A stretch of DNA of 64,000 nt from an uncultured Actinomycetes bacterium (GCA_963742735.1 CAVUMN010000003.1:416001-480000), one strand, 5' to 3'; shown: positions 56,050-63,033, counted from the first letter of the stretch. Notes: generated by a model from the sequence alone, not told the origin. Numbers and translations are program-made.

Positions 56050-58590
56050 ATGTCACAGAGCAACCTGACGCGCGACGAGGCCCGCGGGCGGGCCGGCCTG
56101 TTCTCCGACCTGGCCTACGAGGTCTCGGTCGACCTGGCCGAGGCCGACGAGGAGACCTTCCGTTCGGACACGCGCCTCCAGTTCCGCTGCGCGCAGCCCG
56201 GGGCGTCCTCGTTCGTCGACCTCACGGCTCGTTCGATCGAGTCGGTCCAGCTGAACGGCCGCACGCTCGAGCCCTCGGTGCACGACGGATCCCGGCTGCA
56301 TATCGAGAACCTCGCCACCCAGAACGAGCTGCGGGTGGTCGCCCGCTGCGAGTACCGGCACGACGGCACCGGGATGACCCGGTTCGTCGACCCGGTCGAC
56401 GACGCCGTCTACGTCTACTCCGACCTGGAGCCGATGGACGCCCACAAGGCGTTCGCCTGCTTCGACCAGCCCGACCTCAAGGGAACGTTCGCCTTCACGG
56501 TCCGGGCCCCGGAGGGGTGGACCGTCCTGTCCAACATGTCTCCCGAGGGCGAGCCGGAGGCCACGGACGGCGCGCGCGTGTGGCGGTTCGGGACCACGCC
56601 CGTGATCCCGACCTACATCACCGCGGTCGTCGCCGGACCGATGTTCGCCGCGAAGGGCCGGGCCGGCGACATCGAGCTCGGGGTGTACTGCCGGGCCTCG
56701 CTCGGCCAGCACCTCGACACGGACGAGATTCTGGAGATCACGCGGCAGGGCTTCGAGTTCTTCGAGCGGGCGTTCGACTATCCGTACCCGTTCCAGAAGT
56801 ACGACCAGGTCTTCGTGCCCAACTACATGGCGGGGGCGATGGAGAACGCCGGGTGCGTGACCTTCAACGAGCACTACGTGTTCCGTTCCCGCGAGACCGA
56901 GGTCGTGCACGAGCGCCGAGCCGAGACGATCCTGCACGAGATGGCCCACATGTGGTTCGGGGATCTGGTGACCATGCGGTGGTGGAACGACCTGTGGCTG
57001 AACGAGAGCTTCGCGTCGTACGCCTCGGTCCTGGCGGTCGTCGCCGGGACCCGGTTCCGTGAGGGATGGACGACGTTCGCCGAGACCGAGAAGCACTGGG
57101 CCTACCGCCAGGACCAGCTCCCGACCACCCACCCGATCGTGGCGGAGATCCCCGACGTGGAGTCGGTGCATCTGAACTTCGACGGCATCACGTACGCGAA
57201 GGGTGCCTCGGTCCTCAAGCAGCTGGTCGCCTGGGTGGGGGAGGAGCGGTTCCTGGAGGGAACCCGCGCCTACTTCCGCAAGCACGAGTTCGGCAACGCC
57301 GAGCTCGACGACTTCCTCGGCGCGTTGGAGGAGGCCTCAGGACGGGACCTGCATGCCTGGTCGAAGGAGTGGCTGGAGGCGGCCGGCGTGAACACCCTGC
57401 ACCCGGAGCTCCAGGAGCGCGACGGGCGCCTCGAGTCGGTTCGGATCGTCCAGACGGCACCGGAGGCGTGGCCGACGCTGCGGTCGCACCGGCTGGCGGT
57501 CGGGCTGTACGACCGGCGGAGCGAGGGGCTGGTCCTGCGGCGGCGTGTCGAGCTCGACGTCGTCGGAGGCGAGACCGACATCCCCGAGCTGGCCGGGGAG
57601 GCCGTGCCGGACCTCCTGCTGCTCAACGACGAGGACATGACCTTCGCGAAGGTCCGGCTGGACGAGCGGTCACTGGCCACCCTGGGTGAGGACCTCTCCC
57701 AGCTGCCGGACTCGCTGGCGCGGGCGGTGTGCTGGACCGCGGCCTGGGACATGACCCGCGACGGCGAGCTCCCCGCCCGCGAGTATCTCCGGCTCGTCAT
57801 CCTGCACGCCGAGCGGGAGCCGAAGGTCGGCCTGGTCCAGACCCTGCTCGGCCAGGCCCTGTCCGCGATCCACGCCTACGGCGATCCCGCGAACGCGCCG
57901 GGGGCCCTCCAGGCGCTCGCCGAGGCCGCGCGCGGGGCCCTCGACCGGGCCGAGGCGGGGAGCGACCACCAACTCACCTGGGCGAGGGCGTTCGCGGACG
58001 CGGCTGGGTCGGACGAGCACCTCGCCCTGCTCCAGGCAATCCTCGACGGCTCCTCGTCCTACGACGGCCTCGAGGTCGACACGGAGTTCCGCTGGTACCT
58101 GGTCCGCGCGCTCGCCGGAAAGGGCCGGCTGGACCAGGCCGGCATCGAGGCGGAGCTCGAGCGCGATCCGACCGACGCCGGGCGGCGCCGGGCCGGGGCC
58201 GCGATGGCCGCACGGCCGACCGAGGCGGCCAAGGCCGAGGCGTGGCGGAGCATCCTGGAGGACACCTCGCGTCCGCTCGCCCACCTGGGCGACGTGATGG
58301 CCGGGTTCCAGCAGCTCGGGCAGCTCGACCTGCTCGAGCCCTACGTGGCCCCCTTCTTCGACGCACTGCCGGGCGTCTGGGAGAACCGGGAGCTGCGGTT
58401 CATGCTCGGGTTCGGCCGGTCCATGTATCCGCATCAGGTGGTGTCGGAGGACACGGTGTGGGCCACGGACGCGTACCTGGAGCGCCCCGATGTGCCCGGC
58501 CCGGTACGCAGGATGCTCCTGGAGGGGCGCGACGGGGTCGTTCGCGCGATCCGAGCGCGGGCGGTCGACGCCGCCGCCGGCTCGGGCTAG
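56050..58590 (+). CDS. pepN: Aminopeptidase N (M1)
   Basis: GAMEN, HEMAH.WFG...WLNE, ITYAKG. Confidence 0.96.
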   Translation: MSQSNLTRDEARGRAGLFSDLAYEVSVDLAEADEETFRSDTRLQFRCAQPGASSFVDLTARSIESVQLNGRTLEPSVHDGSRLHIENLATQNELRVVARCEYRHDGTGMTRFVDPVDDAVYVYSDLEPMDAHKAFACFDQPDLKGTFAFTVRAPEGWTVLSNMSPEGEPEATDGARVWRFGTTPVIPTYITAVVAGPMFAAKGRAGDIELGVYCRASLGQHLDTDEILEITRQGFEFFERAFDYPYPFQKYDQVFVPNYMAGAMENAGCVTFNEHYVFRSRETEVVHERRAETILHEMAHMWFGDLVTMRWWNDLWLNESFASYASVLAVVAGTRFREGWTTFAETEKHWAYRQDQLPTTHPIVAEIPDVESVHLNFDGITYAKGASVLKQLVAWVGEERFLEGTRAYFRKHEFGNAELDDFLGALEEASGRDLHAWSKEWLEAAGVNTLHPELQERDGRLESVRIVQTAPEAWPTLRSHRLAVGLYDRRSEGLVLRRRVELDVVGGETDIPELAGEAVPDLLLLNDEDMTFAKVRLDERSLATLGEDLSQLPDSLARAVCWTAAWDMTRDGELPAREYLRLVILHAEREPKVGLVQTLLGQALSAIHAYGDPANAPGALQALAEAARGALDRAEAGSDHQLTWARAFADAAGSDEHLALLQAILDGSSSYDGLEVDTEFRWYLVRALAGKGRLDQAGIEAELERDPTDAGRRRAGAAMAARPTEAAKAEAWRSILEDTSRPLAHLGDVMAGFQQLGQLDLLEPYVAPFFDALPGVWENRELRFMLGFGRSMYPHQVVSEDTVWATDAYLERPDVPGPVRRMLLEGRDGVVRAIRARAVDAAAGSG

Positions 58591-59294
58591 AGGCCGGCCA
58601 GGCGCCGGAGCGCCTCGACCTTCATCAGCACGTACCGCCGGCCCTCGCGGCGGACGATCCGGCGCCGGGCGAGATCCGACAGGATGCGGGTCACGTTCTC
58701 GCGGCTGCCCCCCGACAGGCTTGCCAGGTCGGCGTGGGTGACCTCGGACGGAACCATCGCGCCGTCCTCCGGGAGCTCGTCGAAGCTCGGGCTCACCAGG
58801 CCGAGAAGGCGTTTCGCGACCCGGCCTTTGAGGTCGAGGAACAGCAGGTCTTCGACGAGGGCGTCGTGGGCCTGCACCTGGCGGCTCAGCGCACGGAGCA
58901 GCGCCCGCGACGCCGACGGGTTCGACTCGAGGAAGGCGATGAACACCTCGGGCTCGACGGACCACGTGCGGCTGTCGTCGACGGCGAGCGCCGTGGCCGT
59001 TCGGGGCTGCTCTCCGAGTGACGAGAGCTCCCCGAAGAACTGCGGCTGGTCGATGGTCGTGTGGAGCTGGCGATGCCCGCTCGCGGACAGCGAGGAGATC
59101 TCGATCCGACCCTCGTCGAGGAAGAACACGGGGCCGGGAGGGTCGCCCTGGTGAAACAGATACGTCCCGCGCCGGTACTGGTGGACCACCCCGGCCGCGG
59201 CTAGGTCTGCCGCCGCGGCCTGGGGGAGACCGGCAAGGAGCGGCTGCTCGGACATGCGCCGTCCCAGCTGGCGCGCGGAGGTCGGTGGAGCCAT
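58587..59294 (-). CDS. Crp/Fnr-family regulator with intact cNMP pocket and CRP-type recognition helix
   Basis: LFHQGD, FFGELS...PRTAT, HTH SRENVTR; TAGGCT -10 7 nt before ATG 59294. Confidence 0.92.
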   Translation of the reverse strand: MAPPTSARQLGRRMSEQPLLAGLPQAAAADLAAAGVVHQYRRGTYLFHQGDPPGPVFFLDEGRIEISSLSASGHRQLHTTIDQPQFFGELSSLGEQPRTATALAVDDSRTWSVEPEVFIAFLESNPSASRALLRALSRQVQAHDALVEDLLFLDLKGRVAKRLLGLVSPSFDELPEDGAMVPSEVTHADLASLSGGSRENVTRILSDLARRRIVRREGRRYVLMKVEALRRLAGL

Positions 59295-62158: not shown

Positions 62159-63033
62159 CAGCCGGTTCGGCCCCCGGAACGCCCGCGGGCGGAGGCCTTC
62201 TTCGCGGGAGCCTTCTTGGCCGGAGCCTTCTTGGCCGGGGCCTTCTTGGCCGGGGCCTTCTTGGCCGGGGCCTTCTTCGCGGGAGCCTTCTTGGCCGGGG
62301 CCTTCTTGGCGGGGGCCTTCCTGGCGGGAGCCACCTTGGCCGGAGCCACCTTGGCGGGAGCCACCTTGGCGGGCGCGATCACGGCGTCGGGCCCCGGCTT
62401 GACGTCCATCCGGTCTCGCACCGCTCCGTACACCGAGGCGGTCTTCGGCTTGCGCTTTGCGGAGGTGGTCGCGCCGATGACCCCCCCGGCGAACAGCGCC
62501 ACGGCCGCGGCGAGCAGGACGGAGGTCCACGTGATGGACGACCGCTCCGCGGCGGGGGATCCCAGCTCGATCGGCCCGGCCCGCGAGGGGCCCTCGCCGA
62601 GGGCCTGGGCGACCAGCCGTGAACCGGGCGGCGGATCGGTGAGGAAGCGGATCGGGATCGTCAGCCGAAGCTCCTTGCCCTTGCTACGGATCTCGACGTC
62701 GGCGGGCGTGAGGCCGAAGAAGGCCCCGCGCAACTCGTCCTCGTCCAGGAACGACGTGGTGACGGCCCCGCGGATGCCGACCGAGAAGAGCGCCGGCTCG
62801 ATCTCGAGGGTCTCGACGATGACGCCGTTGGTCTTCAGGGACAGCTCGATCCGCTGGATCCTTCGGAAGCCGCGAGCGTGGGTGAGTCGGAGCTGAGCCA
62901 CGACCCGCTCGCCGTTGGCGAGCTCGCCGTCGATCTCGCCGCTGATCTTCAGTGCGTCCGTCTGAGCCTCGGCAGCCCCCGCGGACAGGAGGAGGCCACC
63001 GACGAGGAACGCGGACATCCAGGCACGACGCAC
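62158..63033 (-). CDS. Membrane-anchored protein: signal peptide, beta-rich extracellular domain, TM helix, cytoplasmic (PAKKA)n tail
   Basis: AEA signal cleavage site; [30 protein letters not shown] 7 nt before GTG 63033. Confidence 0.78.
62194..62374 (-). repeat. 15-bp coding repeat encoding (APAKV)3-APARK-(APAKK)8
   Basis: ggccggggccttctt-type units on the + strand. Confidence 0.9.

Follow-up and report, generated by a model that had tools for sequence, protein, structure and literature searches.

Upstream cleavage events, PDZ domains, or CBS domains are known means by which site-2 proteases (S2Ps) are regulated; SpoIVFB is an S2P with a C-terminal cytoplasmic CBS domain and acts on a substrate that is not a transmembrane protein, pro-sigma-K. 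In daptide clusters the leader is removed by MpaP, a site-2 protease to which a recognition element (RRE) of peptides made by the ribosome and modified after translation (RiPPs) is fused N-terminally (PMC10036551). EpeP/YydH of the epipeptides and TglG and TmoG of the pearlins are likewise membrane M50 proteases that mature ribosomal peptides, and EpeP is thought both to cleave and to export its product (PMC10885120), so that a cassette lacking an ABC exporter has a precedent. Here, we describe a cassette (58587-63033) in a 64,000-nucleotide stretch of DNA from an uncultured Actinomycetes bacterium (GCA_963742735.1 CAVUMN010000003.1:416001-480000; hereafter, the window) that encodes an MpaP homolog carrying two additional cyclic nucleoside monophosphate (cNMP)–binding domains, together with a zinc-finger protein, a polycationic repeat peptide, and a regulator of the Crp type. 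The cassette consists of five co-oriented genes, G1 to G5, all on the minus strand:

62158..63033, minus strand: G1, an open reading frame (ORF) of 291 aa; single-pass membrane protein, accessory and partly conserved
60002..62158, minus strand: G2, 718 aa; RRE-like domain, S2P/M50-type core, and tandem cNMP-binding domains
59779..59988, minus strand: G3, zinc-finger protein of 69 aa with its own GAGGAG Shine-Dalgarno site
59382..59657, minus strand: G4, 91 aa, net charge +26, pI 12, N terminus MEKKIQPKAP; candidate substrate
58587..59294, minus strand: G5, Crp/GlxR-type regulator of 235 aa; cNMP_binding and HTH_Crp_2 domains above the Pfam cut-offs

An initial annotation made from the sequence alone had proposed these five genes, and their order, strand, and coordinates were all borne out by ORF and sequence check. 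The ATG of G2 overlaps the stop codon of G1 as TGATG (62160-62156), and this coupling was found where the annotation had placed it, as were the Shine-Dalgarno site of G4, a terminator hairpin, and two CRP-like boxes; its domain calls (RRE-like, S2P/M50-like, two cNMP domains, and Crp) hold as well. One genome scan with G2 residues 1-480 as the query identified five related loci (L001 to L005), all in Actinomycetota metagenome-assembled genomes. L005 breaks off after G2 residue 153, leaving the downstream side visible in four loci. L001 to L004 encode a full-length G2 with both cNMP-binding domains, 47-58% identical to that of the window (46-57% when the orthologs are aligned), and G3 directly follows G2 in all four. 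In three of them (L001, L003, and L004) G3 is followed by a basic repeat ORF and a Crp gene, the G5 orthologs being 53-65% identical, so that the survey of homolog neighborhoods for a repeat ORF, a zinc finger, and Crp, which the annotation had suggested as a check, was positive. The neighbor of the cassette in the window is the gene for PepN; in L001 and L005 the neighbors are genes for sulfate assimilation along with GlnR and glnA, and L003 and L004 have the cassette as an insertion that separates trmD from rimM, in a ribosomal-protein S16/ffh neighborhood. Because these three flanking contexts differ, the cassette moves as a unit, and the module itself is real.

G2 is an MpaP-type intramembrane zinc protease with an N terminus of RRE fold and two cNMP domains, its parts lying as follows:

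61784..62089, minus strand: RRE-like (PqqD-type) β3-α3 domain, acidic; G2 residues ~24-125, from an AlphaFold2 model
61457..61471, minus strand: HELGH zinc-binding motif, residues 230-234, at the end of a hydrophobic segment
61166..61195, minus strand: second S2P signature, N322-x2-P325-x3-L329-D330-G331
60419..60700, minus strand: cNMP domain 1, residues ~487-580, PF00027, with an F-G-E-L-G-L...R-T-A cassette
60059..60364, minus strand: cNMP domain 2, residues ~599-700, with F-G-E-V-A-L-L...P-R-T-A-T; best Pfam stretch 618-699

Residues 39-409 of G2 align with an annotated MpaP encoded on a plasmid of Streptomyces virginiae (30% identity over 380 residues, E 3e-27), the alignment spanning the N-terminal domain, HELGH, and N..P...LDG, and the NCBIfam model daptide_HExxH (NF041824) matches residues 56-433 (E 4e-43), with 360 of its 379 positions covered (14-373). 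The two hallmarks of the S2P/M50 family, HExxH in a membrane segment and a downstream N..P....DG, are both found adjacent to hydrophobic peaks. H230, E231, G233, and H234 are invariant in 5/5 orthologs, and so are N322, P325, L329, D330, and G331, which align with the same motif of the annotated MpaP. Between its two soluble parts G2 has six main hydrophobic segments, seen as eight 19-residue hydropathy peaks that overlap, so the N-terminal and cNMP-binding domains would be cytoplasmic. The C-terminal half matches the tandem cyclic nucleotide–binding domains of PKG and PKA-R chains (E 7.5e-57); PF00027 is found above its cut-off with an intact phosphate cassette, and the residues that we take to contact the phosphate (G541, E542, and R551, and G663, E664, R673, A675, and T676) are invariant in 5/5 orthologs. 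When plasmids were searched with G2 by tblastn, no place covering at least 80% of the query was found in the 274 matching records, which match the MpaP core or the cNMP domains alone.

G2 and MpaP share an N-terminal RRE-like domain and an HExxH/N..P...LDG core, and short precursor-like ORFs lie beside both. They differ in that G2 adds two C-terminal cNMP domains and its cassette adds a zinc-finger partner and a dedicated Crp. The cassette also differs from daptide clusters in having none of the tailoring genes mpaB, mpaC, mpaD, and mpaM: we detected neither MpaB (DUF-RRE) nor an oxidative decarboxylase, aminotransferase, or methyltransferase in the window and the five loci. G4 has no ELExMEAP leader motif, hydrophobic core, or invariant C-terminal Thr, the peptide and its orthologs ending in A, I, L, and Y. 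The systems of EpeP, TglG, and TmoG include tailoring enzymes, radical-SAM or other, and the sections of the source that treat these proteases mention no cNMP domain (PMC10885120); homology of EpeP/YydH to G2 is weak, the YydH/LiaK epipeptide protease model NF058609 giving 50.8 bits against a cut-off of 225. TMcin was also considered and set aside, as the relevant part of its report concerns a DUF3267 protease unrelated to G2 (PMC13712780). The family TIGR03896 (cyc_nuc_ocin) is an annotated precedent for cNMP domains within gene sets for peptide maturation and export; its match is at the domain level only (42.1 bits against a 161-bit cut-off), and the TIGR03896 protein is no protease. SpoIVFB differs from G2 in that its CBS domain binds ATP, it has no RRE, its substrate is a sigma factor, and neither of its partners, BofA and SpoIVFA, is related to G3.

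The RRE-like character of the G2 N terminus emerged from structure prediction. An AlphaFold2 model built from six orthologs (predicted local distance difference test, pLDDT, 76.3) places strands at residues 28-32, 40-45, and 50-55, followed by helices, giving the predicted three-stranded sheet and three-helix winged helix of the RRE fold. The best Foldseek matches in the PDB are the LynD/TruD heterocyclases and, each in complex with its leader, TbiB1 and a lasso B1 protein (probability 0.99-1.0), and 10 of the first 15 matches listed are RiPP enzymes (LynD/TruD, TbiB1, lasso B1, and TigE) that bear RREs or are labeled as leader complexes. The domain has a net charge of -6 to -13 in all six orthologs, and G4 one of +14 to +26 in 4/4. 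A prediction of the complex between the N-terminal domain and G4 residues 1-45 scored 0.00 against a mark of 0.32 and was used neither for nor against binding.

G4, as judged from its sequence and those of its relatives, is a real translated gene with a conserved N terminus of about 10 residues and a lineage-specific polycationic repeat body. Two features belong to it:

59393..59581, minus strand: G4 tandem repeats of 18 bp (x 6.9) and 9 bp (x 7.9), encoding KAVRAT and RAT units
59332..59355, minus strand: terminator-like hairpin 3' of G4, with a 12-bp G+C stem

A GGAGG site lies 9 nt upstream of the ATG, and the body comprises about seven KAVRAT units followed by seven RAT units. The G+C content at third codon positions (GC3) is 0.95, compared with 0.58-0.78 when four further frames that overlap it, two on each strand, were tested. 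The hairpin (-32.6 kcal/mol, z -4.6) was matched in stability by 0/200 shuffles, and a G+C hairpin follows G4 in 4/4 loci, with z of -3.0, -2.65, and -4.3 in L001, L003, and L004, respectively; a simple terminator scan missed that of the window because its U-tract is weak. Between G3 and G5, a single small ORF that is preceded by a Shine-Dalgarno site and encodes a polycationic repeat body is found in each of L001, L003, and L004. These counterparts start M-(A/P)-EKK(I/K)(Q/V)(S)PK-x-P, an N terminus shared with the window G4 and written in short as M-x-EKKIQPK-x-P, and the motif occurs exactly once each in the window, L001, L003, and L004 and nowhere in L002 or L005. Over the first 29 codons, L003 and L004 differ by nine synonymous and two nonsynonymous changes, which points to purifying selection. 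The repeat units differ by lineage: GKRVL pentads in L001, a 14-residue unit present twice in L003, AKKQL pentads in L004, and units of 6 and 3 aa in the window that are unrelated to those of the relatives. With its N terminus kept and its repeat units differing, G4 is shaped like a precursor with a leader and a variable core.

G5 belongs to the CRP/GlxR branch, with Pfam scores of 72.7 and 52 bits and an R-E-x3-R recognition helix, which reads SRENVTR in all four G5 proteins (window, L001, L003, and L004). Its nearest solved relatives are Mycobacterium tuberculosis CRP (3d0s, E 7e-27) and Corynebacterium glutamicum GlxR; because all NCBIfam equivalog cut-offs are unreached, no named ortholog can be given. 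It resembles M. tuberculosis CRP (Rv3676) and GlxR in its two-domain architecture, its R-E-x3-R helix, and an operator core of GTGA-N6-TCAC, and it differs in being a cassette-linked paralog whose boxes stand in tandem arrays at 23-24-bp spacing. The candidate operators are:

59751..59766, no strand assigned: distal CRP-type box, plus strand TGTGTTGCTCGTCACC, center 101.5 bp before the G4 ATG
59727..59742, no strand assigned: proximal CRP-type box, plus strand TGTGTCGCGCGTCACC, center 77.5 bp before the G4 ATG
G3-G4 spacers: boxes per source, two in the window, six in L001, three in L003, and two in L004
63065..63080, no strand assigned: weak CRP-like box, GGTGAAACTCGTCAGA, two mismatches, ~40 bp before the G1 start

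The two spacer boxes of the window lie 24 bp apart, each with two mismatches from TGTGA-N6-TCACA. With the pattern refined post hoc, after the spacers had been viewed, to GTGAC-N4-GTCAC (the CRP core with its inner bases fixed), matches with at most two mismatches number 109 in the 133,106 bp of the window and loci, and 13 of these fall within the 586 bp of G3-G4 spacer, where 0.42 would be expected given the 96 matches that lie in the remaining 132,520 bp (Poisson P = 1.6e-15). Five of the six perfect matches in these loci are within spacers. In L001 five boxes follow one another at 23-24-bp steps, and three of these match perfectly; the three boxes of L003 are at 23-bp steps, and the two of L004 lie 46 bp apart. 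CRP-type palindrome arrays thus stand upstream of the peptide gene in 4/4 peptide-bearing loci, near a candidate regulated promoter, and this positional conservation is independent of the post hoc Poisson statistic. Pairs of boxes with one or two mismatches are also found upstream of G2 in L003 (9638 and 9684, 46 bp apart, twice the 23-bp step) and L004 (5290 and 5351), and none near G1 in L001; given these weak boxes upstream of G1 or G2, the protease operon may share the regulator of G4. No Rfam family was found in the whole window, so the G3-G4 spacer is no known riboswitch or leader RNA, and a simple promoter scan of the window returned no promoters. At its 3' end, G5 shares 4 bp with the gene for aminopeptidase N (56050-58590), which is convergent to it, the two overlapping at their stop codons (58587-58590), and owing to this overlap there is no terminator between them. 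The sole perfect TGTGA-N6-TCACA palindrome of the window, TGTGAAAGTTTTCACA, lies elsewhere, at 27276-27291, in the 3' end of a glycosyltransferase-4 gene and ~300-700 bp upstream of the ATP synthase genes (atpB-like ORF from 27996), and is possibly a global CRP site.

The most conserved cassette gene is G3, 80-84% identical in 4/4 orthologs, above the protease. Its eight invariant Cys/His ligands are spaced C3-x2-C6-x7-C14-x2-C17-x4-C22-x2-H25 ... C53-x2-C56, a spacing that may resemble that of the B-box, and its C terminus is an invariant acidic tail, P-x-D-L-P-E-L-D. DUF2180 (PF09947) matches residues 1-28 only, at E 6e-4 and 20.4 bits against a cut-off of 22.2, so that G3 falls outside the family as Pfam defines it. 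AlphaFold2 modeled the first 20 residues confidently (pLDDT 88-93); the tail scored below 50 and is predicted to be disordered. A PDB fold search with G3 gave nothing significant, the best match being the piggyBac cross-brace zinc finger (E 0.65), followed by eS26 and C5HCH, and a tblastn search of plasmids gave no match. The ESM Atlas holds DUF2180-like clusters of ~70 aa in Chloroflexota and Actinomycetota, with PF09947 in 12-28% of members; no paper on DUF2180 was found in the literature searched.

The reading that we favor, tentatively and as something plausible rather than probable, is that the cassette is a self-contained cyclic nucleotide–responsive peptide-processing module. From this arrangement of genes and domains we infer peptide binding, peptide cleavage, cNMP gating, operator occupancy by G5, a role for G3, and the fate of the product. 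A cyclic nucleotide, probably cAMP, would load G5, which would bind the GTGAC-N4-GTCAC array and control transcription of G4 and, through read-through from G4, of G5 itself. The same nucleotide would bind the tandem cNMP domains of G2 and gate the protease, in parallel to the gating of SpoIVFB by its CBS domain; such gating is suggested by the fusion of the domains in one protein sequence. The acidic RRE-like domain would dock the conserved basic N terminus of G4, and the membrane-embedded active site would then cleave G4 to release a polycationic repeat peptide, with G3 acting as an obligatory protease partner in the role of adaptor or inhibitor. The product would either cross the membrane, as proposed for EpeP, or act inside the cell as a polycation like protamine or histone H1. 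The fuller version, in which one cyclic nucleotide drives a feed-forward circuit by promoting Crp-driven transcription of the peptide and licensing its RRE-guided cleavage, possibly with membrane passage, is possible and on the whole doubtful.

How far the cassette may be called RiPP-like, as the initial annotation had it, depends on its neighbors. Domain families were searched with seven window ORFs at an E limit of 0.01 and with the others at 1e-5, and no cyclase or tailoring domain was found among the 66 window ORFs scanned (7 + 42 + 17), in agreement with the annotation. No tailoring enzyme acting on a core peptide, of which a RiPP cluster has at least one, is present within or around the cassette, whether in the window or in the five loci, and since no exporter or cyclase adjoins the cassette in any of them either, RiPP-like can refer to leader-guided proteolysis only. 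Because no tailoring enzyme is present, the product would be a leader-processed, unmodified ribosomal peptide and not a RiPP.

Several observations weigh against a peptide-processing module. We found no gene for a nucleotide cyclase, for RiPP tailoring, for an ABC exporter, or of an immunity-like kind anywhere in the window or next to the cassette in any of the five loci. The family models place G2 at some distance from its named relatives: its score of 147.9 bits against NF041824 is below the equivalog cut-off of 300, so that G2 is homologous to MpaP without being an equivalog, and Pfam Peptidase_M50 (PF02163) gave 19.2 bits against a gathering threshold of 27.2 (E 8e-4) and goes unreported for full-length G2, in which Pfam sees the two cNMP_binding domains alone (153 bits). 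PqqD (PF05402) did not match the G2 N terminus even at E <= 10, a PDB profile search with this region gave only weak winged-helix matches (E 0.6-0.8), and the Foldseek E-values are weak (7.6e-3 to 0.07) for a model built from six sequences only. The invariant acidic, disordered tail of G3 could be an alternative ligand of the RRE-like domain. G4 is very hydrophilic, with a mean Eisenberg hydrophobicity of -0.29 to -0.41, unlike known MpaP-type substrates, and S2P active sites are embedded in the membrane; daptide precursors are rich in branched-chain aliphatic residues (PMC10036551). For the operators, the window alone has five matches to TGTGA-N6-TCACA where 10.4 are expected, no excess, so that its boxes are significant only because they are conserved in related loci, and the refined pattern was chosen post hoc. 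In L002, G2 and G3 are present and a convergent HxlR-type gene abuts G3 in place of G4 and G5, on a contig that ends 346 bp past the G3 stop codon; the peptide gene is therefore not obligatory at this position. The whole case comes from five related loci of a single phylum.

The main rival follows from three of these points, the hydrophilicity of G4, the lack of G4 in L002, and the G3 tail as an alternative ligand. It holds that G4 is a Crp-controlled intracellular polycation, resembling protamine or histone H1, that G2 and G3 form a separate cNMP-gated switch acting on another target such as the G3 tail or G1, and that the genes travel together through a shared second-messenger regulon. We regard it as somewhat unlikely and as deserving serious weight. 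The G4 family (net +14 to +26, pI 10.7-12, no hydrophobic segment) resembles chlamydial Hc2, the H1-like tails of HupB, and Rv3852 in its Lys/Ala/Arg-rich tandem repeats and extreme pI, and the tail of the window G1 weakly matches the HC2, H1-like, and Rv3852 models. In contrast to those proteins, G4 matches no nucleoid-protein family, the G1 matches are all below cut-off, and no DNA-binding fold is present. The maximum helical hydrophobic moment of G4, 0.29-0.47, fits a bulk polycation, and the pentad and hexad repeats give no single hydrophobic face, so a reading of G4 as an amphipathic antimicrobial helix is unsupported. The independent expansion of repeats from different units likewise fits bulk charge better than a specific core, but a conserved N-terminal decapeptide on a polycation otherwise free to evolve suggests a recognition handle. 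That G3 is the most conserved member, with an invariant tail predicted to be disordered, that G2 and G3 occur in L002 without G4 and G5, and that no exporter adjoins the cassette all suit a switch independent of the peptide; against this, the acidic RRE-like domain complements G4 and not the acidic G3. In the homologous daptide system, the short ORFs beside the RRE-protease encode its substrates (PMC10036551).

A distinctly less probable alternative to processing of G4 by G2 is a module for regulated intramembrane proteolysis, in which G1 would respond to a cue from outside and be cut by G2, or else regulate it, with Crp and G4 as downstream outputs. G1 has a signal peptide–like N terminus and one hydrophobic peak (residues 172-190), and its predicted layout is an outside domain of ~150 aa, a transmembrane segment at ~172-190, and a cytoplasmic PAKKA-repeat tail:

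62188..62373, minus strand: (P)AKKA tail of G1, a 15-bp tandem repeat x 12.4, specific to the window

Translational coupling of G1 to G2 is seen in the window and in L001 and L005, where the overlapping G1 orthologs lie at 9327-9917 and 4726-5490, and the transmembrane and juxtamembrane segment is conserved among the orthologs. S2P proteases classically cleave single-pass membrane regulators; the topology of those substrates is, however, opposite to the N-out/C-in orientation predicted for G1. G1 is absent from L003 and L004, where G2 carries an extra N-terminal transmembrane helix instead, and is apparently internally deleted in L002, and the proteolysis of G1 would leave the RRE-like domain and the conserved N terminus of G4 unexplained. 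The PAKKA-tailed membrane protein that the initial annotation counted as a cassette member is therefore particular to the window in this form, the tail being missing from L001 and L005 and the gene from L003 and L004. Because the G1 orthologs in L001 and L005 have no PAKKA tail, the basic tandem repeats of G1 and G4 appear to have been gained independently of the relatives. The extra helix of G2 (MQYLILAVL...) is encoded at 9782-9900 in L003 and 5449-5570 in L004. Upstream of G2 in L002 (6280-7185) lies a GGDEF-like fragment (RLGGDEFCALL) followed by the G1 remnant, whose start and tail resemble the L001 G1; the region contains several stops. In the window, the gene upstream of G1 (63076-63960, 294 aa) matches no family beyond a weak CBM-like match (E 2e-3), and it has no counterpart adjoining the cassette in the related loci.

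Two further readings are very improbable. A Pycsar-like anti-phage effector, a cNMP-binding membrane protein activated by a cyclic nucleotide made upon infection, was suggested by matches of the cNMP domains of G2 and G5 to the PADLOC PycTIR and Pycsar models (E 4e-21 and 2e-13), but these matches cover the generic cNMP-binding domain only, no cyclase is present in the window or any locus as Pycsar membership would demand, the flanks are housekeeping genes with no defense-island context, and the cassette includes a Crp-type factor with operator arrays; a role in defense was rejected, as the PADLOC matches are at the domain level only. Chance adjacency, with G4 a spurious ORF in a tandem repeat, might be entertained where high G+C content gives long ORFs in every frame and G4 is of low complexity, but it is effectively refuted by the recurrence of the gene order in three chromosomal contexts, by the GC3 of G4 and its N terminus conserved with mostly synonymous change, and by a Shine-Dalgarno site and hairpin conserved in 4/4 loci.

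In its working, the module would resemble MpaP and, at a greater distance, EpeP among the RRE-guided S2P leader peptidases, as well as S2Ps to which a nucleotide-sensing domain is fused, such as SpoIVFB with its CBS domain. The initial annotation had stated that no described system with this layout was known. That statement stands for the cassette, in that no description of an RRE-S2P-cNMP protein or cassette, and no paper joining the terms RiPP recognition element and cyclic nucleotide, was found in the literature searched. It does not extend to the parts: an RRE-S2P fusion has been published for daptides (PMC10036551), and the RRE-S2P-cNMP domain architecture is not unique to the window, being already present, uncharacterized, in the ESM Atlas. 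The Atlas contains several unnamed cNMP_binding + Peptidase_M50 clusters of 58-114 members, with Chloroflexota the commonest phylum; PF02163 is found in 46-79% of the members of these sister clusters, and one cluster has PqqD (PF05402) in 30%. As a lead, these look-alike clusters hint at an architecture that may be common and yet unstudied. With the cassette, the RRE-peptidase idea behind the discovery of daptides is extended to precursors that have a highly unusual polycationic repeat body and no tailoring genes, in a compact system of four or five genes. A cNMP-gated site-2 protease, if confirmed, would add direct second-messenger control of intramembrane proteolysis to the known modes of regulation, and G2 would be the first second-messenger-gated intramembrane protease if the feed-forward circuit is correct. 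Processing of G4, if it occurs, would likewise be the first system in which a leader guides the maturation of a ribosomal peptide that is unmodified and protamine-like, a conserved zinc-finger protein serving as cofactor.

The remainder of the window (G+C ~71%) carries core chromosomal genes, among them the ATP synthase operon and the genes for RF-1, L31, SHMT, MurA, Rho, and PepN. Three further membrane-associated protease-type genes are present: a CvpA + trypsin-like fusion (8379-9692), an Rce1-like CAAX protease (40567-41535), and a PrsW-family protease (43896-45263). The transaldolase profile is matched by two ORFs that overlap in different frames, the one at 12220-13230 covering positions 1-165 and the one at 13094-13438 positions 178-284, so that the 12220-13438 region reflects either a gene with a frameshift or an indel in the assembly.

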